Notes: generated by a model from the letters alone, not told the origin. A DNA stretch of 51,601 nucleotides from an uncultured bacterium (GCA_963933175.1 CAWVTW010000002.1:1-51601), one strand, 5' to 3'. Counted from the first letter of the stretch, positions 2,330-47,279 are shown. Numbers and translations: made by a program.

Positions 2330-3856
2330 ATGGATATACATACTGATCAATTAACCCAGCTACTTCGCGAACAAATCGAAAAATTTGATGGTTCGGTTGA
2401 TGTTGCTGAGGTCGGAGAAGTGATTGCAGTGGGCGATGGTGTTGCTCGCGTCTCCGGTCTAGAAAATGTAATGAGTTCTGAATTAGTCGAATTACCGAAT
2501 GGTGTTTTCGGGATGGCATTGAATCTTGAAGAAGACAATGTGGGTCTCGTGTTGTTTGGTGAAACGCGGCTGGTGAAAGAGGGTGATTTAGCAAAACGGA
2601 CTGGCCGTGTTGTGGAAGTACCGGTAGGAAATGCAATGCTTGGCCGTGTTGTAAATCCATTGGGACAACCTATTGACGGAAAAGGTCCAATAGACACCCC
2701 CCACTCGCTTCCTATTGAAAGGAAAGCGTTGGGTGTTATGGCTCGTCAACCTGTAACAGAACCCTTGCAAACTGGTATCAAAGCTGTGGATAGTATGATC
2801 CCCATTGGCCGTGGTCAACGAGAACTGATTATTGGCGATCGTCAAACCGGGAAAACTGCTATTGCAATTGATGCTATCATCAATCAAAAATACACCCATA
2901 AAACAGATGATCCTGTTTATTGTATTTATGTGGCGATAGGACAAAAAGCATCAACCGTTGCTGCTCTTGTTCAAGAATTAGAAGCTAATGGTGCCATGGA
3001 ATACACAACTGTTGTGGCTGCAAATGCATCTGATCCGGCACCGACACAATACATAGCACCTTACTCAGGTGCAGCCATGGGCGAATATTTTCGTGACAGT
3101 GGTAAACATGCTTTAATCGTATATGACGATCTTTCAAAACAAGCTGTGGCTTATCGTCAAATGTCATTGGTTCTTCGTCGTCCACCGGGACGAGAAGCTT
3201 ACCCTGGTGACGTTTTTTATCTTCATAGTCGTTTATTAGAACGGGCATCCAAATTATCGGATGACTTGGGTGGTGGTTCCTTGACTGCATTACCCATTAT
3301 TGAAACGCAAGAAGGTGACGTATCTGCATACATTCCAACAAATGTGATTTCAATCACAGATGGACAGATTTATCTGGAAACAAACCTTTTTAATTCAGGG
3401 ATTCGTCCTGCGATTGATGTGGGGCTTTCAGTATCCCGTGTGGGTGGTAACGCACAGATCAAAGCTATGAAATCTGTTGCCGGTACCCTCCGTTTGGATC
3501 TGGCTCAATATCGTGAATTAGAAGCATTCGCAAAATTTGGTTCTGATTTGGATAAAGCAACCTTAGCCCAATTAACTCGGGGTGAACGGATGGTTGAGAT
3601 CCTTAAGCAGAATCAATATGTTCCCATGGATGTTGAAAAACAAGTTGCAATCATCTTTGCTGTTTCAAAGGGGCATTTGGATGATATTGATGTAAATCGA
3701 GTTTTGGAATTTGAAACTGGATTATTTGAATATCTTGAAGCAAATGCGGCAGATTCTCTCGCATCTATTGTGAAAGAAGGGAAAATTTCAGATGAATGTT
3801 CCCTGACTCTTGAAAAAGCGATTGTTGAATTTAAAGCGGGATTCAACGTGAATTAA
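2330..3856 (+). CDS. atpA: F0F1 ATP synthase subunit alpha
   Basis: Walker A GDRQTGKT; the highly conserved alpha sequence is recognisable throughout. Confidence 0.98.
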
Positions 3857-3859
3857 TTA

Positions 3860-4711
3860 ATGGCAAATCTTAAGGACATTCGTGACCGTATAAAATCGGT
3901 GAAAAGCATCCAACAAGTAACTAAAGCTATGAAAATGGTGTCAGCTGCAAAAATGCGTCGTGCTCAGGAACGAATGGAACAATCACGACCTTATAGTAAT
4001 TCATTGACAGACGTGATTCACCATTTGTTACCGGATGTGGATCGGGATATGCTTCCACTTTTGGATGTTCGGGAGGTCAAGCGAAAAGCCTATGTGGTTG
4101 TTTCTGCTGACCGTGGACTTGCCGGTGCATTCAATACTAATTTGCTGAAAATTGCCCAAAATGAAATTGATTCTTTTGGTAAAGAAAATGTGGATCTGTT
4201 CTGTATCGGGAAAAAAGCCAGGGATCATTTCAAGCGCCGCGAATACACTATTATTACAAGTCATGTTGATTTCTGGGCCGAAATGGAATATGACAGCGCC
4301 ATGATTATAGGTCGCAGCATCATAGACCATTTCACCAGCGGCAAGGTGGACGAGATTCACGTGGTGTACAATTACTTTATTAATGTTGGGAAGCAGGAAG
4401 TGAGATCAGAAGTGTTGCTACCTCTTATCTATGAAGAAAGTAGCAGTATCCCTCAAGATCGCTTATACGAACCATCCAAGGAAGAATTAGTATTATCTTT
4501 AATACCTCGACATCTGAATGTTCAGATGTGGAAATATTTACTTGAATCATATGCCAGTGAACAGGCAGCTAGAATGTTGGCTATGGAAAATGCCACTTCA
4601 AATGCCCAAGATATGATCAAGGACCTTACATTACAATTCAATAAAGCTCGTCAAGCTACAATTACGACAGAAATGCTGGAAATTGTCGGTGGCGCCGAAG
4701 CTTTAGGTTAA
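3860..4711 (+). CDS. atpG: F0F1 ATP synthase subunit gamma
   Basis: N-terminal IKSVKSIQQVTKAMKMVSAAKMRRAQ and C-terminal ITTEMLEIVGGAEAL gamma helices. Confidence 0.95.
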   Translation: MANLKDIRDRIKSVKSIQQVTKAMKMVSAAKMRRAQERMEQSRPYSNSLTDVIHHLLPDVDRDMLPLLDVREVKRKAYVVVSADRGLAGAFNTNLLKIAQNEIDSFGKENVDLFCIGKKARDHFKRREYTIITSHVDFWAEMEYDSAMIIGRSIIDHFTSGKVDEIHVVYNYFINVGKQEVRSEVLLPLIYEESSSIPQDRLYEPSKEELVLSLIPRHLNVQMWKYLLESYASEQAARMLAMENATSNAQDMIKDLTLQFNKARQATITTEMLEIVGGAEALG

Positions 4712-6129
<1,418 letters not shown>

Positions 6130-6130
<1 letters not shown>

Positions 6131-6528
6131 TGAGCAATTTCAATCTTGAAATTGTAACACCAATCCGCGAACTGGACGAAGGACAAGTGAGCTATGTTCG
6201 CTGTCCCGGACTGGATGGTTCATTCGGCGTAATGGCAAACCATCGTGAAGGGATCATTGCATTGGCGGTTGGAGAGATCAAAGTCACGCGAGATGGCAAA
6301 GATGTATTCTTGGCCACAAGTGGCGGTTTTTCAGAAATCATGAAAGACAAAGTTAAACTGTTGGTTGAATCCGTGGAGACGGCATCCGAAATTGACGCTG
6401 ATCGCGCCGAAAAATCTTTAGAACGGGCGACTCAACGCAAATCTGAACAAGATTCAGAAATGGATGATGCTCGTATAGAAGCATCCTTGATGCGGGCCAT
6501 TAATCGTTTACGAGTTTCAAAAAGATAA
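6130..6528 (+). CDS. atpC: F0F1 ATP synthase subunit epsilon
   Basis: 132 aa. 1-nt overlap with the atpD stop. Beta-sandwich plus helical-hairpin pattern. Confidence 0.9.
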
Positions 6529-6556
6529 TTTTTCGAAAAAATGAAATTTTAAACAG

Positions 6557-6596
6557 AAAACTCGAAACGGTTATTGTTTCGAGTTTTTTGTTTTTG
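6557..6596 (+). terminator. Rho-independent terminator of the atp operon
   Basis: Perfect 12-bp stem aaaactcgaaac / gtttcgagtttt, 7-nt loop, then a T-run. Confidence 0.85.
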
Positions 6597-6629
6597 AACT
6601 AATTAATAAAAAACCTGATAAATTAAGAT

Positions 6630-8387
6630 ATGTTTAAACGGACACATACAAACGGCGAATTACGAAAATCCCACAGTGGGAAATCTGTTAACCTAAACGG
6701 CTGGGTGAATACAGTTCGCCTCCATGGACAGGTGGTTTTTGTGGATCTCCGGGACCGTTACGGTAAAACGCAAATTATTTTTGATGCTGATTCTTTTACC
6801 GGTGATTTTGAAGCGGTGAAAAAATTGTCTATGGAAGATGTCTTGTCTCTCCGGGGAACAGTGAAAGATCGGGCTGAATCGGCAATAAACCCAAATATGG
6901 AAACCGGTGAAATCGAAGTCGCCGTTACGGAATATATTATGCTGAATGAAGCGGCGCCGTTGCCGTTTGTATTGTCAGACAGGGACAGTGCTGAAGAAAA
7001 CCTTCGCTTAAAGTATCGCTATCTTGAACTTCGGATGGAAGAACTCCAGCGGAATATGCTGATTCGTCATGACACCTATCAAGCCGTTCGCGGATATTTG
7101 TCCGGTCAAGATTTTGTAGAAATAGAAACGCCGATTTTAATGAAATCCACACCGGAAGGCGCTCGGGACTATTTGGTTCCCAGTCGGATTCATCCGGGAA
7201 AATTTTACGCACTGCCCCAATCACCCCAGATCTATAAACAGATCCTTATGATCGCTAATTATGACCGCTATTTCCAAATCGTAAAATGTTTTCGGGATGA
7301 AGATCTTCGGGCAGACCGCCAGCCGGAATTCACCCAAATTGATATCGAAATGTCTTTTATAGATGAAGAAGACATTTTTGCTCAGATGGAAGGGTTGACC
7401 TGTCATGTTTTTAAATCGGTACGTGGTGTTGATCTACCCAATCCTTTCCCAAGATTAACATATGCTGAAGCCATGGAAATCTATGGTTCCGATAAACCGG
7501 ATCTTCGTTATGGCATGAAACTTCAAGATGTGAAAGACTTCACAGATGCTTCAGACTTTAATGCCTTCAAATCTGCTGAAAAAGTGAAAGGCATTGTGGT
7601 GGAAGGCGGTGCTAAATATTCACGAAAGAATATTGATGAATTCACAGATTTCGTTAAAAAATACAAGGCCAAAGGCCTGGCGTGGATGAAAGGGGAAAAT
7701 GGGGCGTTTACCGGCGGAATATCAAAATTTTTCTCTGATGATCTCCAAGAAACCATGTGTGAAATATTGGGTGTGAATGATGGTGACATTTTATTCATGA
7801 TTGGCGATAATTCATCCGTTACTCTGAATGCTTTAGGCCAGCTCCGTGTGGCAATTGCCAAACGTGAAGCGTTAACAAACAAAGATGATTTTAAGCCGGT
7901 TTGGGTGACAGAATTCCCCATGTTCGAATATGATGAAGGCGCAGACCGATTTATTGCTATGCACCATCCATTCACCGCACCAAGAGAAGAAGATGTTGAT
8001 ATGCTGGATTCGGATCCATCCAACACTTTGAGTCGTGGCTATGATTTAACCTTAAATGGATATGAGATTGCCGGTGGCTCTATTCGAATTCATTCACCAA
8101 AAGTTCAAGAAAAAGTATTCTCTTTATTAGGATTAAGCCGTGAAGAGGCGGTTGAAAAATTTGGCTTTTTAGTAGAAGCCTTGACTTATGGTGCGCCACC
8201 CCACGGCGGAATTGCATTTGGCTTTGATCGCTTGGTAATGCTTTTAGCAGGAACAGAAAATATCCGTGACGTGATTGCGTTCCCCAAAACAACTTCAGCA
8301 ACATCTCTCATGGATAGAAGCCCCAGTAATGTATCAAAAGAACAGTTGGATGAGTTGGGGATTCAAATCAAAAAATCTAAAAAATAA
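6630..8387 (+). CDS. aspS: Aspartate--tRNA ligase
   Basis: Class II motifs FRDEDLRADRQPEFTQID, GGSIRIH and GFDRLVM. Bacterial-type 585-aa length. Confidence 0.97.
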   Translation: MFKRTHTNGELRKSHSGKSVNLNGWVNTVRLHGQVVFVDLRDRYGKTQIIFDADSFTGDFEAVKKLSMEDVLSLRGTVKDRAESAINPNMETGEIEVAVTEYIMLNEAAPLPFVLSDRDSAEENLRLKYRYLELRMEELQRNMLIRHDTYQAVRGYLSGQDFVEIETPILMKSTPEGARDYLVPSRIHPGKFYALPQSPQIYKQILMIANYDRYFQIVKCFRDEDLRADRQPEFTQIDIEMSFIDEEDIFAQMEGLTCHVFKSVRGVDLPNPFPRLTYAEAMEIYGSDKPDLRYGMKLQDVKDFTDASDFNAFKSAEKVKGIVVEGGAKYSRKNIDEFTDFVKKYKAKGLAWMKGENGAFTGGISKFFSDDLQETMCEILGVNDGDILFMIGDNSSVTLNALGQLRVAIAKREALTNKDDFKPVWVTEFPMFEYDEGADRFIAMHHPFTAPREEDVDMLDSDPSNTLSRGYDLTLNGYEIAGGSIRIHSPKVQEKVFSLLGLSREEAVEKFGFLVEALTYGAPPHGGIAFGFDRLVMLLAGTENIRDVIAFPKTTSATSLMDRSPSNVSKEQLDELGIQIKKSKK

Positions 8388-12227: not shown

Positions 12228-13409
12228 ATGCAACGGCAATCAGTTATTGTTGCGGCGAAACGGACACCCATCGGCGCATTTCAAGGTAATTTATCATCCG
12301 TATTGGCTCCAAAACTTGGAGCAATTGCGATTAAAGCAGTCGTGGAAGAAACCGGCATCGATAAAACCCAAATAAATGAAGTCATCATGGGAAATGTTTT
12401 ATCAGCTGGAATCGGACAAGCCCCGGCAAGGCAGGCAGCTATTTATGCAGGATTACCCAATTCGGTAGAAGCACTGACAATCAACAAAATGTGCGGTTCC
12501 GGATTAAAAGCTGTGATGTTGGCAGATCAAGCTATTCGGTGTGGTGATGCAGAAGTGGTGATCGCTGGTGGTATGGAAAGTATGTCCAATGCGCCCTATC
12601 TTTTGCAAGATGCACGGTCCGGCCAACGACTAGGCCATGGGAAAATGATAGATAGTTTGATTCATGATGGGCTCTGGGATGCCTACAATGATACCCATAT
12701 GGGGAATTGTGCAGAAATGCTTTCGAAAGAACGGAATTATACTCGTGAAGCCCAGGATAAATTTGCTGTAACTTCATACAAACGTGCCCAAACAGCACAG
12801 GCGGAAGGTGTCTTCGATTCTGAAATTGTTCCGGTAAAAATCCCACAAAGAAATGGAGATTCCATATTTATTTCCGAAGATGAGGAACCGGGTAAAGCCA
12901 GATTTGATAAGATACCAACATTACGGCCAGTTTTTGAAAAAGATGGTGCCATTACTGCAGCAAATGCATCAAAACTGAATGATGGTGCAGCGGTTATTCT
13001 TGTCATGAGTTGGGAAAAAGCGAATAAACTGGGACTCACTCCGATTGCACGTATTGTGGCTCAAGCTTCTTCAGCGCATGAGCCGGAATGGTTTACCACG
13101 GCGCCGGGAAAAGCCATTGGCAAAGTTTTAGAAAAAGCAAATTTATCTACAAATGATATCGACCTTTGGGAAATCAATGAAGCATTTTCTGCAGTCACCA
13201 TGGCCGCCATTGATGATTTTAAAATTAATCCTGCTAAGGTGAATATTTATGGTGGTGCTGTGGCTATCGGGCACCCCATCGGTGCTTCCGGAGCACGGAT
13301 ATTTACAACCTTGATGAATGGTATGACCAGAACCGAAACAAAATACGGATTAGCAACTCTTTGTATTGGTGGTGGAGAGGCATCCGCTTTGATCGTGGAA
13401 AAAGTATGA
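12228..13409 (+). CDS. Acetyl-CoA C-acetyltransferase (thiolase II)
   Basis: Active-site NKMCGSGLKAV, GGAVAIGHPIGASGARI and CIGGGEASA. Confidence 0.95.
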   Translation: MQRQSVIVAAKRTPIGAFQGNLSSVLAPKLGAIAIKAVVEETGIDKTQINEVIMGNVLSAGIGQAPARQAAIYAGLPNSVEALTINKMCGSGLKAVMLADQAIRCGDAEVVIAGGMESMSNAPYLLQDARSGQRLGHGKMIDSLIHDGLWDAYNDTHMGNCAEMLSKERNYTREAQDKFAVTSYKRAQTAQAEGVFDSEIVPVKIPQRNGDSIFISEDEEPGKARFDKIPTLRPVFEKDGAITAANASKLNDGAAVILVMSWEKANKLGLTPIARIVAQASSAHEPEWFTTAPGKAIGKVLEKANLSTNDIDLWEINEAFSAVTMAAIDDFKINPAKVNIYGGAVAIGHPIGASGARIFTTLMNGMTRTETKYGLATLCIGGGEASALIVEKV

Positions 13410-42701: not shown

Positions 42702-45700
42702 TTATTTCAGTCTTTTTACTAATCCGCCATATTGTTTATTAATCTCAAACCCCTGACGGAAGAAAAATTTCTCTACATAGAATCCAACCGTAATTATGTC
42801 AACACCTCGGTGCTTCATTCGTTTGTAAAAATCGTCCATCAATCGATTACTTAAAGAAATATTTCGGTAATTTTCCCGAACAGCAACCCATTCTAAGTGA
42901 ATTCGATTATTCTCCATATTTTTCCAATACAACCCACCGACCATTCGATTACGGGAATTAAATAAAAGGAGGAAATCGTGTTGCGCCGTAAAGGTCCCTG
43001 ATAAGGATGATTCTGATAATAAAGAATGGAATTGACCAATTTCTTTTGGCAAAAAAGGTGGGCGAATTTGATAGATCTGACCATCCATGCCCTCGGTTTG
43101 AATAACCAAATTTAATCGATTATCCTCACCATGGGTTGTTGTCACCAACTCAACATAATCCGCAGCATCAACATGGGGAAATAGCATTCGAGCGAGGTAA
43201 AATTTTTCTTCTTCGCTTAATATTATATTGGTTTGAATTTGAGTAATCCGTTCATGCAGATTCCAAGGACTTAATAAACCATCTCTCATGCTCAGGATTA
43301 TGGATTGAAATTCACTTAGCAGATTCGGGTTGTCTTGCTTAAAACAGGTCATCATAAAAAATCGCACACGAGTCTCCGGGTATTCTTCCATGAGGGAGTC
43401 CAAATCATAATCTTGATATAATTCCTGTAGAATGGATGCCCGGGCTGTCAAGGTTGCTTGAGGGTTCAGGTCCAACCAACGTTCAAAGCGTAGGGATGCA
43501 AAAACCACCGGTTTTGTCAAAACGCCAAATTTTTCTATATCATCTAAAAACCGGTCAATTCGAGCCACTGTGCATCCCATTGATTCGAATTTCATTCGTA
43601 GAGTTCGTTGGTTCAAATCCATTTTGAGTTGGTTTAATATTTTCTTACCGCGTTTCAGTTTAACTGCTTGCAGTGTTGCCGTGAAGATCACTTCCCAGTC
43701 AGACATATGCTTCAGACCTGGATATTTATTTTCCGTTCTAATGATATAATCCGTGTATAAAGACAAAAAATGTTCTGCTATAGACTCAGTTGGTTTGCGT
43801 CCAGAAATTGAGATCAGTCGCGTACCCGTAGAATAGTCATGTTGCGGAATAACAAGATTTGAAGGTGATGGCGGTTGGATTGATAATTTGAATTCGGTTC
43901 TATTCCAAAATTCTTGATAAGCCTGAACACCATTCCAGATAAAATGAAGCCACCGCATTTGCCATCGATCGACCTTAGATTCATCCAAAATATCATCCCG
44001 GTTCCGGTCAAGATAAGCTGTTAATGTTTCACCGTGAATATACTCCTCCGTATAAAGTTGATATTCCGGCCAATAACCTCCGAAATTTTCGACCAGAGGT
44101 TTGTCCTTAAATCCGGATCCCATGATAATAAGCCATTTGATCTCTTCTTCTAGAAAATTTTGATCCCAACCATCATTCAAATTCACCACGAGATTATGTG
44201 TTCCAAGAGAACGCGTCCGAACTAAAATTCTGAAAACACTTTTATTATTTCGTGAACCTAGATGAGAAACCCAAAGACTATTTTTAGCGATATCATTCAA
44301 CCCAACAATACAATTAGAAGATAAAAGAAAGATCGACTCTCTTATCATGGATGTTTCAGTAATAGCTTCCATTAATTTCTTTCGATGAATGGATTTTACA
44401 TTTTCATCAAAGGTGACTACATCTTGCCATGTGTATTCCTCACCTGTATCTCTATCAATGGTCAATTTAGATGATTTTCCGATCCAAGTTCGAAATCCTT
44501 TTGTTAAAGCATAATATGCTTTTTGGGCCGTTGAGAAAAGGGGTTTAGAAATATGGGAGATCTGCCACCAAATGAGTTCAGATCTGGCCCAAACAAACCG
44601 AGTAGGATGAATTGTACCAAAATCCGTCACCATGAGCAAAATAGTTTGGATGAATTCCTGATCAACGGATTTTGAATTCTTGAAATTTAAATGGGCTTCT
44701 TGTAAATAGCTGATAAAAGCACGATAATGTTCATCAGTAGTTCGATCGATATTGAAAGAAAACCCTTTGGATCTATCCTGTTTTTTCTGGTATTGATATG
44801 CATCACGCAGCATGGAAATGAGAAAATTCCCAGACAAAAGGGGTGTAAGTGTTTCAATCAGTTTTATGCGAAATGTTGGGTCTGAATGAGATTGATAATT
44901 CAAAAATGTATCAATTAAAACGCCGGACCAATTCCCAAGATCGCCATCAACTACTTCTCTCAAGTAATTAAATACACTTGGATCATCTGCCAAGTATTGT
45001 CGAACTGCCAAATGGAAATTATACAGTAAAATATCATTTTTATTGTCTGGAGTTACGGGAGAAAAAGATGCCCCGATCTTTGGTTCATGAATTTGAACTG
45101 TAATGTAAAGTTCAGGTTCTTTTAACCGGTAGATAATAGGGCCGGTAAATTCTGTTATTCCAAAATTGCCTAACCAGTGTGTGGGTGATTGGATCAGAGC
45201 ATCAAAATCCAATATATCTGAATCAATAGAATAGGTAAAATCACCTATTTGGATCTTGGTATCCACCCAGGAAACCAGAAGTGATTCGGTTTGACCTTTG
45301 ATAGAAACTTTTCGTCCATCCCATTTCACATTAGTTCGAACGGTTCCAATCTCTCGAAGCAACCAATTTGGAATTCGGATCTCTTTTGAGCCGGAATAAA
45401 GGGCTACATAATTTTTTTCATAAAGGGGTTCAATAATATGAAAAAAATTCTTTAAAACATTTTTTCGATTAAATGTTCCTTTGGCTGTCAATTCACCTTT
45501 TTCTGCAGAAAAATCCCTATTGATTATGACATAATTCACAATTCGTTCAAATGGAGACAGAAAGCTGTTCACTGACAAGATTATAGAACTGTATAAATCA
45601 CGGATGGCCTGTTTATCCGTAGTTTCAATGTTAATGAGGGAATTCGTGGTATCCGGGAATATTAAAATTGTATTGAATTCCCGGCCATCACCCACAAGAA

Positions 45701-47279
45701 AGACCGACTTGACTGAATCAAAATCCTGAAAAAGGTTCTCGATCTTTTGGGGCGCAATGGTTTGGCCTCGACTATTTTTATATATATCTTTTTTACGATC
45801 GACGATAAAATAATGCCCATCTTTTTCTTCAAAAATATCGCCCGTGTGGAACCAGCCATCCATAATTACATCCGAATCATCCTCCTTATAATAACCATCT
45901 GTAACGTAGGAACCTTTCAGACATAATTCTCCGTCATTAGCGATTTTCAGTGTTATTCCTGGGAGAGCTATTCCAACAGAATCGATGATATATTCAGTGG
46001 GTGGCGTCATAGTAATACCGCCAGTAGCTTCTGTCATACCATATCCGCTCAAAACATTCACACCATGGGATTGATAAAATTTGAAAATATCAGGATCTAA
46101 ATAACCTGCCGCTGACAATCCCCATTTCAATTTTCCACCTGTGATGGATTTTAATTTTGTCTCTATGGTTTCACTATCTTCAGAATCCATGTCTAATTGT
46201 TTTTCCAGCATTTCGTAGAGTTGAACCCACCGCTTTGGAATACTTATAAAAATGGTAGGGTTCACCATGGGAAAATCTTTTAACAATGAATTAAAAGCGG
46301 GTGATTCGGCGAAAGAATAGGTAGCTCCCCAAAAAATGCTCCCCATCAATTCGAAATATCGTCCAAATGTATGAAAGAGTGGCAAATAACAAAGAAATAT
46401 ATCATCTGAACCAAACTCAGGTAAAGCCAAGGCCCGGGCAAATCGTTTACTGATAATATTACTCTGATTAAATGTAATCCCTTTCGGGTTTGCGGTGGAG
46501 CCCGATGTATACATAATAGTCTGGGTGCGATCCATTGACACGTAGGACAAACGCTGATCTACATCAAAATTTTGTGAACGATCCCGATTTTCAAAAAATA
46601 TCTCCCAATCCATGACCTTTCCTTGGATTAAGTTTGAATCATTCAAGCCAATCACAAGAATGTCGTAGTTGTGATGCACTTCATTCCAAAGGCGAATAGC
46701 TGTTTTGCCACCAACAAAGAGGTGATTTATTTCTGATTGTTTTAAAATATACGAGAGATGCTCGGAGGTTGAATTCAGTGGAATGGGAATCACACGAATC
46801 CCAAATGATAAGCAGGCCAAGTCCACCAAAACACCATTTAGTTGATTGTAGGTGAGAAGACCTATAACAGGTGGCTTTTCCGGTCCACCTAAGACAGAAA
46901 GTGCTTTTCCGGTCATTTGGATTTTTGACCATAAATCTGAGTAGGATAGAGTGTGGAGATCATCACCGCGAATCATATTAAAAACAGTTTTATCGCCATA
47001 CCGTTTTGCCCGTTGCTGTATCATGGTTCCTGTATGGAATTGGGAAAGATCAATGAGTCGAACAACTTGCTCCAGCCATTCTTCGGTTACGTTGGCTTTA
47101 GAAATTATTTTTGCAACGGATTGAAAATGAGCCAGGTCAAGGAACTGATGAATAATTTCGCGATCCGGAGATTGATCCAAACAATCATTCACCAGGCGGA
47201 TCAATGCATCAGCGGTCAAATTTCCCTTATAAGCTTGGGAAATGGATTCGTTAATCCGGGTTTGGAGCCCTGTGTCCAT
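42702..47279 (-). CDS. 1525-aa fusion: acyl-AMP/CoA ligase (aa about 95-615), about 770-aa unknown region, C-terminal GNAT-like acyltransferase
   Basis: AMP-binding motifs MYTSGSTANPKGI, SGYGMTEA and TGDIFEEKDGHYFIVDRKKD. The C-terminal LEWVAVRENYRNISLSNRLMDDFYKRMKHRGVDIITV is GNAT-like. Confidence 0.85.
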   Translation of the reverse strand: MDTGLQTRINESISQAYKGNLTADALIRLVNDCLDQSPDREIIHQFLDLAHFQSVAKIISKANVTEEWLEQVVRLIDLSQFHTGTMIQQRAKRYGDKTVFNMIRGDDLHTLSYSDLWSKIQMTGKALSVLGGPEKPPVIGLLTYNQLNGVLVDLACLSFGIRVIPIPLNSTSEHLSYILKQSEINHLFVGGKTAIRLWNEVHHNYDILVIGLNDSNLIQGKVMDWEIFFENRDRSQNFDVDQRLSYVSMDRTQTIMYTSGSTANPKGITFNQSNIISKRFARALALPEFGSDDIFLCYLPLFHTFGRYFELMGSIFWGATYSFAESPAFNSLLKDFPMVNPTIFISIPKRWVQLYEMLEKQLDMDSEDSETIETKLKSITGGKLKWGLSAAGYLDPDIFKFYQSHGVNVLSGYGMTEATGGITMTPPTEYIIDSVGIALPGITLKIANDGELCLKGSYVTDGYYKEDDSDVIMDGWFHTGDIFEEKDGHYFIVDRKKDIYKNSRGQTIAPQKIENLFQDFDSVKSVFLVGDGREFNTILIFPDTTNSLINIETTDKQAIRDLYSSIILSVNSFLSPFERIVNYVIINRDFSAEKGELTAKGTFNRKNVLKNFFHIIEPLYEKNYVALYSGSKEIRIPNWLLREIGTVRTNVKWDGRKVSIKGQTESLLVSWVDTKIQIGDFTYSIDSDILDFDALIQSPTHWLGNFGITEFTGPIIYRLKEPELYITVQIHEPKIGASFSPVTPDNKNDILLYNFHLAVRQYLADDPSVFNYLREVVDGDLGNWSGVLIDTFLNYQSHSDPTFRIKLIETLTPLLSGNFLISMLRDAYQYQKKQDRSKGFSFNIDRTTDEHYRAFISYLQEAHLNFKNSKSVDQEFIQTILLMVTDFGTIHPTRFVWARSELIWWQISHISKPLFSTAQKAYYALTKGFRTWIGKSSKLTIDRDTGEEYTWQDVVTFDENVKSIHRKKLMEAITETSMIRESIFLLSSNCIVGLNDIAKNSLWVSHLGSRNNKSVFRILVRTRSLGTHNLVVNLNDGWDQNFLEEEIKWLIIMGSGFKDKPLVENFGGYWPEYQLYTEEYIHGETLTAYLDRNRDDILDESKVDRWQMRWLHFIWNGVQAYQEFWNRTEFKLSIQPPSPSNLVIPQHDYSTGTRLISISGRKPTESIAEHFLSLYTDYIIRTENKYPGLKHMSDWEVIFTATLQAVKLKRGKKILNQLKMDLNQRTLRMKFESMGCTVARIDRFLDDIEKFGVLTKPVVFASLRFERWLDLNPQATLTARASILQELYQDYDLDSLMEEYPETRVRFFMMTCFKQDNPNLLSEFQSIILSMRDGLLSPWNLHERITQIQTNIILSEEEKFYLARMLFPHVDAADYVELVTTTHGEDNRLNLVIQTEGMDGQIYQIRPPFLPKEIGQFHSLLSESSLSGTFTAQHDFLLLFNSRNRMVGGLYWKNMENNRIHLEWVAVRENYRNISLSNRLMDDFYKRMKHRGVDIITVGFYVEKFFFRQGFEINKQYGGLVKRLK

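Follow-up and report, generated by a model that had tools for sequence, protein, structure and literature searches.

A 1525-residue protein of marine SAR406 bacteria that joins an adenylate-forming ligase, a kinase-shaped middle region and a Gcn5-like GNAT: a possible self-supplying acyltransferase

The giant gene and the layout of its product

The window, a 51,601-nucleotide stretch of DNA from an uncultured bacterium (GCA_963933175.1, CAWVTW010000002.1:1-51601), contains a giant gene on its minus strand (42702..47279). The host is a marine SAR406 (Marinimicrobia) bacterium, and the open reading frame (ORF) encodes one intact protein of 1525 amino acids (aa). An earlier reading made from the DNA alone (the sequence-only reading) had called an ORF of this length at the same place. 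The call is borne out, as the frame is open from an ATG and homologues of 1525 aa exist in public data. Near-identical 1525-aa proteins (P0003, 99%) occur in public metagenomes and support both the start and the length of the ORF. They belong to a graded series of homologues of 1519-1542 aa, most of which are labelled Marinimicrobia/Neomarinimicrobiota. Because the ATG frame is open and the homologue series carries Marinimicrobia labels, the gene model and the assignment to SAR406 are secure.

Read from the N- to the C-terminus, the chain comprises an ANL ligase resembling long-chain fatty-acyl-CoA synthetases, then a conserved beta domain and a helical domain, next a domain shaped like a kinase but catalytically dead, and last a Gcn5-like GNAT (Table 1). 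This order does not vary within a large family from uncultured bacteria of the FCB group. Every motif quoted in the sequence-only reading was located in the protein where that reading had put it. In the ligase these are MYTSGSTANPKGI (aa 256-268), GYGMTEA (aa 412-418), TGDIFEEKDGHYFIVDRKKD (aa 479-498) and TAKGTFNRK (aa 598-606); farther along the chain they are EEYIHGETL (aa 1078-1086), IQPPSPSNLVIPQHDYSTGTRLISISG (aa 1134-1160) and RNISLS (aa 1472-1477). Judged from the sequence patterns described below, the protein may be a cytoplasmic single-chain acyltransferase that supplies its own acyl donor, with the middle region acting as a scaffold, recruiter or sensor. This is a tentative proposal, and its chance is put somewhat short of even.

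Table 1. Positions in the window of the giant gene, the parts of its product and two neighbouring genes
Feature	Position	Strand	Basis or remark
Whole gene	42702..47279	(-)	1525 codons plus stop, ATG start; apparently monocistronic
N-terminal extension, aa 1-87	47019..47279	(-)	Upstream of the Pfam ligase domain; family-conserved, e.g. L47, R90
ANL ligase large domain, aa 88-464	45888..47018	(-)	PF00501 1e-53; motif A3 YTSGSTANPKG, A5 GYGMTEA
Ligase hinge and C-terminal domain, aa 465-622	45414..45887	(-)	FACS-type signature DGWFHTGDIFEEKDGHYFIVDRKKD at aa 474-498; K600 displaced A10 lysine, canonical position T602
Unassigned beta-rich domain, aa 623-731	45087..45413	(-)	Model pLDDT ~90; no PDB fold match
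All-alpha domain of stacked helical hairpins, aa 750-990	44310..45032	(-)	Model; only generic weak fold likeness
Protein-kinase-like fold with helical C-terminal extension, aa ~994-1365	43185..44300	(-)	Foldseek; canonical catalytic residues missing
GNAT domain, aa ~1375-1525 (Pfam core aa 1411-1511)	42705..43157	(-)	Pfam, family profile, model
GAF-HD-GYP gene, 545 aa	47501-49464	(+)	HD_5 6e-40, GAF 5e-11
CitMHS-family permease gene, 597 aa	49513-51306	(+)	Two TrkA_C domains

The ligase, the GNAT and the region between them

The N-terminal end had been read as an adenylate-forming ligase, and two Pfam models agree. AMP-binding matches aa 88-464 (1e-53, 182.9 bits against a cut-off of 29.9) and AMP-binding_C_3 matches aa 503-622 (3.6e-13, 50.4 bits). 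The nearest named families in NCBIfam are long-chain fatty-acid-CoA ligases and FadD11, and the ligase lies far under every equivalog cut-off there, with 155.6 vs 476 bits for PRK06187 and 155.2 vs 950 bits for FadD11. The closest solved structures are the adenylation domains of carboxylic acid reductases (CARs; 5e-29, HMMER against PDB sequences). Motifs A3 (YTSGSTANPKG), A5 (GYGMTEA), A7 (HTGD) and A8 (VDRKKD) are all present, and aa 474-498 match the fatty-acyl-CoA synthetase (FACS) signature of the FadD literature. The 65 full-length family members, with middle regions as little as ~20% identical, keep A3, A5, A7, A8 and the hinge at 90% conservation or more. Since the ATP, AMP and hinge motifs are kept at this level despite such divergence of the middle, the pattern is that of a working enzyme and not of a decayed regulatory remnant.

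The ligase departs from the canonical pattern at the A10 lysine. The stretch TAKGTFNRK had been described as A10-like; it is present, but the canonical lysine position, three residues ahead of the Arg conserved in the C-terminal loop, is occupied by T602 in the HMMER alignment to CAR structures, and the lysine is found at K600. An ungapped alignment with a stand-alone ligase of the same genome (ELTPTLKIRRK vs ELTAKGTFNRK) likewise places the canonical Lys opposite T602. The longer stretches compared are GELTPTLKIRRK in the stand-alone FAA1-type ligase and GELTAKGTFNRK in the giant protein. This paralogue, a 591-aa FAA1/COG1022-type acyl-CoA ligase (locus L089, 683-2458 (-), equal to contig C190 of the window's assembly G000), keeps the canonical A10 context, which makes it a useful internal control for the displaced lysine. 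The family consensus is ELT-x-K-G-T/S-x-x-R-K, with the lysine two residues upstream of the canonical position and almost invariant (>90%). A family-wide two-residue shift of the ANL catalytic lysine raises a question about structure and function in the adenylate-forming superfamily that is both clear-cut and testable.

The same residues bear on the idea of a Pat-like sensor acetyltransferase. In such a protein the GNAT would use acetyl-CoA from the cellular pool, and the ligase domain and the pseudokinase would mainly be regulators that bind metabolites (acid, ATP/AMP, acyl-CoA). Pseudokinases are commonly allosteric modules, and the missing canonical lysine at T602 could mean impaired adenylation. 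The layout also parallels that of the type I GNAT lysine acetyltransferases, in which a large acyl-CoA-synthetase-related domain is followed by a C-terminal Gcn5-like GNAT (PMC8556138). However, all other catalytic motifs of the ligase have stayed at 90% conservation or more through very deep divergence, unlike the Pat domain with its lost catalytic His, and the conservation of K600 suggests that the catalytic lysine was relocated rather than lost. A Pat-like sensor is considered unlikely, though a serious candidate.

At the C-terminal end, a GNAT with a degenerate motif A had been proposed. The assignment, as judged from profile matches, is weak for the window sequence alone and solid for the family. 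In the window protein Acetyltransf_1 scores 20.7 bits, exactly its cut-off of 20.7, and Acetyltransf_10 scores 22.4 bits, under its cut-off of 23.6. Pfam GNAT models match 31/31 family members scanned (best 1.6e-9), and the family profile finds the Tetrahymena Gcn5 histone acetyltransferase in the PDB at 6e-9. The acidic residue of strand beta4, E1463 (HLEWV), is kept in 26/26 members compared. The motif A pattern Q/R-x-x-G-x-G/A is absent from the window protein, which reads RNISLS at aa 1472-1477, and distant family members carry a canonical motif of the R-x-x-G-x-G type (RGKGLG, QRSGLG, RGQGIG). On these comparisons, canonical motif A is a feature of the family that has been lost in the window's clade. 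The AlphaFold2 model keeps the fold elements of a GNAT in the expected order (model residues 783-904), with pLDDT 60-84 in the core and <50 in the N-terminal strands. A Foldseek search with the model of aa 620-1525 returned no GNAT structure among the best 50 PDB matches, all of which are kinases. The GNAT is regarded as real and, from its conserved residues, probably active.

A fatty-acid-type ligase with a FACS-like signature would also suit a small-molecule N-acyl synthase, one of the two functions suggested in the sequence-only reading. Here the ligase would make an acyl-CoA and the GNAT would acylate an amino acid, a polyamine or another small amine to give a lipoamino-acid-type or N-acyl-amine product, with the middle serving as a scaffold or as an adaptor to the membrane or a partner. 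N-acyl amino acid synthases with a GNAT fold are known, and the envelope-related neighbours Acyl_transf_3 and GT2 lie beside the gene in one Bacteroidota metagenome-assembled genome (MAG). Yet by profile the nearest relatives of the GNAT are Gcn5 protein acetyltransferases and not OlsB/NAS-type enzymes, the loci compared contain no conserved lipid-biosynthesis neighbours, and a reaction on a small molecule would hardly call for a 770-aa scaffold. Such a synthase is rated as distinctly unlikely.

Between the two ends, the region that could not be assigned from sequence continues to resist sequence methods. No match was found for aa 623-1400 in Pfam, NCBIfam or the PDB sequences (phmmer), with Pfam run on 31 members up to E 1. 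Stray NB-ARC and HTH matches in single members of that scan were treated as noise. Structure prediction was more informative. A model of aa 620-1525 built on 31 homologues with AlphaFold2 has a mean pLDDT of 83 and a pTM of 0.71, and a second model of aa 620-1000 has a pLDDT of 90 and a pTM of 0.83. In these models the ~770-aa middle resolves into the beta domain (aa 623-731), the helical domain (aa 750-990) and the kinase-like domain (aa ~994-1365). Foldseek on the models placed the last of these in a known fold and left the beta and helical domains without a significant PDB match. The middle thus matches a fold and no known family with an assigned function.

Nowhere in the middle is conservation higher than in the beta domain, where P637, W639, G679, Y683, P699, W702, G704, N705 and F711 are at least 90% conserved. 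The domain is probably important for function, as far as conservation can tell. When the beta and helical domains were searched together (aa 620-1000), no PDB fold match was found under E 0.038. The helical domain shows a generic weak likeness to 14-3-3, TPR and ARM/HEAT repeats in Foldseek, and its profile a weak likeness to importin-beta/ARM (E ~0.03). Both domains have confident models without a PDB counterpart and may be new domain families.

A vague likeness to kinases had been noticed in the sequence-only reading, and Foldseek indeed puts aa ~994-1365 in the protein-kinase-like fold. The 50 best matches noted above have probabilities of 0.98-1.00 and a best E of 5.8e-05. They include Eph and LIM kinases, JAKs and VPS34, and the best TM scores (0.5-0.6, target-normalised) belong to Bud32/PRPK. 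The pLDDT of this region is mostly 85-95, and the stretch at aa 1134-1160 that had raised the suspicion covers the catalytic-loop to DFG region. The canonical catalytic residues are missing. Strand beta3 (aa 1026-1035, GTHNLVVNLN) has no Lys, the position of the catalytic HRD Asp is P1136, and the position of the DFG Asp is a conserved Ser, S1157. Relatives do not consistently restore these residues. No member inspected has the beta3 Lys or the DFG Asp, and an Asp or Glu stands at the HRD position only in some clades, for example as ADPKPAN in P0128. Other positions are conserved instead (>90%), namely R1017 in beta2, G1067, W1125, N1141 and D1148. No Pfam kinase model matches any of the 31 members. 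Since a kinase-like fold is predicted and its three canonical catalytic residues are lacking, the domain is, on the model, a pseudokinase in the canonical sense.

The domain could instead be a real enzyme, such as an atypical kinase, an ATPase or a nucleotidyl-transferase, which would give the chain three catalytic activities. Its best fold match, Bud32/PRPK (TM up to 0.60), is a minimal atypical kinase/ATPase. The five conserved positions lie in the pocket region, and some clades keep the acidic residue at the HRD position. However, the HRD Asp is missing in most members and the other two catalytic residues in all those inspected, D1148 belongs to the turn between beta7 and beta8, at a distance from the canonical site, and no kinase profile matches. 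A third active enzyme in the chain is very unlikely.

Distribution and genomic neighbourhood

The middle alone was compared with 1.84 billion representative proteins and matched 323 clusters, of which nearly all intact ones are 1475-1640 aa long with the same order of parts. Relatives with this constant architecture were found in at least 446 species among the GTDB species genomes, from Marinimicrobia, Fidelibacterota, Calditrichia, 'Cytophagia' and other FCB-group MAGs; the titles listed include no cultured organism. In the window's phylum the gene has a patchy occurrence (49/151 genomes and 19/67 genera). Carriers have one copy, invariably a long frame without interruptions, and the ~1-Mb streamlined lineage of the phylum lacks the gene. 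The ligase part directly precedes the middle in every locus with enough upstream DNA (83/87), and the intact matches are open frames of ~1475-1640 aa without stops; therefore, the fusion appears to be obligatory. A public metagenome protein of 886 aa, P0126, starts exactly at the boundary between ligase and middle (MYEKNY...) and contains only the middle and the GNAT. A frameshift, a split of the gene or a start called at the wrong place may account for it; if it is real, it would indicate that the two halves can work as separate chains.

In the window the GAF-HD-GYP gene is oriented divergently to the giant gene, and a ctaA-sco1-ctaB-DUF420 cluster on the other side converges on it. The GAF-HD-GYP gene overlaps the start of a 109-aa ORF without a Pfam match. 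In most Marinimicrobia loci the HD-GYP gene upstream of the giant gene is accompanied by the CitMHS permease gene. This HD-GYP/CitMHS arrangement was seen in 45/63 loci with enough flanking sequence, and 10 of the 45 have no cta cluster downstream. The HD-GYP orthologue is single-copy and near-core (113/151 genomes of the phylum, against 49/151 for the giant gene). In several carriers the orthologue is not linked to the giant gene; it was not found in carriers G091 and G150 at the threshold used, and is next to none of the homologues from outside Marinimicrobia (0/7). Because of this pattern the adjacency is interpreted as inherited synteny and not as a sign of functional coupling between the two genes. 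The best HD-GYP match was reported with one in-frame stop in six genomes (G005, G063, G071, G140, G066 and G122). Consensus scans for promoters and terminators at the locus gave nothing above the shuffled expectation, and the consensus is not informative for this phylum. Membership in a defence system was also considered and rejected, as the giant protein has no PADLOC match.

Outside Marinimicrobia the neighbours vary, the Acyl_transf_3 and GT2 glycosyltransferase genes of the Bacteroidota MAG being one example. Citrate synthase adjoins the giant gene in 2/87 loci (L006 and L085). In a distant Marinimicrobia lineage whose middle is 29% identical (L003/L004), an O-methyltransferase gene (Methyltransf_3; 12567-13193 (-)) lies between the giant gene and DUF420, and a full cox operon (COX1-COX3, COX4_pro, COX2) runs on downstream of ctaA. 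The distant homologue P0201 comes from a MAG labelled 'bacterium' (L007). Just upstream of it are GatD-like (GatD_N plus asparaginase) and GatE-like (GatB_N plus GAD) genes at 3543-6790, and a baeRF_family10 gene lies downstream. GatDE is normally archaeal, so the taxonomy of this MAG or a gene transfer deserves a look.

Lysine deacylases of the SIR2 or HDAC type, which could act as erasers of acylation, are present in 15/16 high-quality carrier genomes. In the window's own assembly (84.6% complete) neither type was found; three genomes of the same family have SIR2 or HDAC. Deacylase presence is compatible with protein acylation, but it is non-specific and does not discriminate between the models.

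These erasers would also fit a cis-autoregulated ligase, the enzyme-regulator fusion of the sequence-only reading, in which the GNAT acylates K600 of its own chain and switches the ligase off, as Pat and AcuA act on Acs in trans. The sequence-only reading had pointed to Pat-type acetylation of the A10 lysine. Several features speak against this specific idea: there is no lysine at T602, K600 stands in a T-x-K-G-T context and the protein has no NDP-forming synthetase-like domain. Pat enzymes acetylate a lysine in the context PxxxxGK, and the conserved lysine of the family lies in ELT-x-K-G-T instead. Control of ANL ligases by GNATs through the A10 lysine is well established (PMC8556138). Nevertheless, no eraser gene is linked to the giant gene in the loci examined, and self-acylation would leave the conserved 770-aa middle unexplained. 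Autoregulation in cis is given only a slight chance.

Proposed function and comparison with known systems

In the self-supplying acyltransferase that we propose, the ligase would use ATP to activate a free carboxylic acid (probably a fatty acid) and join the acyl group to CoA. The tethered GNAT would take this thioester and N-acylate an amine, with the conserved Glu/Asp of beta4 (E1463) as the general base. Since the nearest relatives of the GNAT are protein acetyltransferases of the Gcn5 type, the acceptor amine would most likely be a protein lysine. The ~770-aa middle would serve as a rigid scaffold, recruit substrates and/or sense a ligand and would not be an enzyme, because its kinase-like fold lacks catalytic residues and finds no Pfam kinase match. 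A coupled reaction is favoured because strong purifying selection on both catalytic ends is combined with an obligatory fusion.

Several points weigh against this proposal. The main cautions are the displaced A10 lysine and the degenerate motif A. The lysine needed for adenylation is replaced by Thr, and K600 is only a candidate substitute on sequence grounds. Motif A, which binds pyrophosphate, is degenerate in the window's clade, the Pfam scores of its GNAT lie at or below the cut-offs, and the first GNAT strands are among the poorly modelled parts of the chain (pLDDT <50). A long-chain acyl donor would be unusual for a small Gcn5-like GNAT. Finally, no conserved neighbour indicates a target in the loci compared in and beyond Marinimicrobia.

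If the self-supplying reading is true, the protein would represent a new architecture for bacterial protein or metabolite acylation, with donor synthesis hard-wired to transfer, and a rare case of a bacterial pseudokinase built into a metabolic enzyme. Marinimicrobia rank with the most abundant uncultured bacteria in the interior of the ocean, and the giant gene is among their largest conserved genes without a function. The literature search found no description of a ligase-pseudokinase-GNAT architecture, and the giant protein's architecture is not among the five bacterial GNAT types that have been reviewed (PMC8556138). It might be an undescribed sixth type of bacterial protein acyltransferase, a writer that makes its own, possibly long-chain, acyl-CoA and in which the pseudokinase-solenoid picks targets or senses a metabolite. 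This extension of the proposal is doubtful, although it has an appreciable chance of being correct. A writer of this kind would couple organic-acid supply directly to protein lysine acylation in dark-ocean SAR406 and other FCB bacteria.

In its logic the protein comes nearest to Pat, PatZ and PatA, protein acetyltransferases of types I and II. Salmonella Pat, E. coli PatZ/YfiQ and Streptomyces PatA also have an acyl-CoA-synthetase-related domain fused to a GNAT with a candidate beta4 acid. The regulatory domain of Pat is NDP-forming acyl-CoA synthetase-like, ~700 aa long and has lost its catalytic His (PMC8556138), whereas the giant protein has an AMP-forming ANL ligase with its motifs retained in place of an inactive NDP-forming domain. 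It also adds ~770 residues (beta, helical and pseudokinase domains) between the two ends. Membership in the Pat/PatZ group was rejected because there is no NDP-forming synthetase-like domain; CoA_binding_2, Succ_CoA_lig and ATP-grasp_5 gave no Pfam match up to E 1.

The ligase shares its two-domain ANL fold, AMP-binding_C_3, motifs A3, A5, A7 and A8 and the FACS-like signature with FAA1/FadD11/ACSBG (COG1022) and the CAR adenylation domain. It differs from these in the A10 lysine, which is shifted two residues N-terminally, and in the ~900 further residues fused to it. Compared with CAR, the giant protein has no carrier or reductase domain. Membership in the CAR family was rejected, as only the adenylation part aligns (aa 247-622) and neither PP-binding nor NAD_binding_4 gives a Pfam match. 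The NCBIfam model carboxyl_red scores 132.6 bits vs 1300 and covers only profile positions 13-621 of 1160.

With Bud32/PRPK, other minimal protein-kinase-like folds and the pseudokinases of bacteria and eukaryotes, the kinase-shaped domain has in common the N-lobe sheet, alphaC, the hinge (TEEYIHGETL), the catalytic-loop Asn (N1141) and a helical C-lobe. It differs in that it has neither the beta3 Lys, HRD Asp and DFG Asp nor a kinase-family sequence match, and it is placed between a helical domain and a GNAT. The bifunctional aminoglycoside-modifying enzyme AAC(6')-Ie/APH(2'')-Ia is one of the few known single chains that join a GNAT and a kinase-like fold. Its domains stand in the opposite order, its kinase is active and specific for small molecules, and it has no ligase. 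The two proteins have no detectable sequence relationship. A multidomain GNAT fused to an acyl-CoA-synthetase-type domain is a known kind of protein, to which the giant protein of SAR406 possibly adds two new domains.

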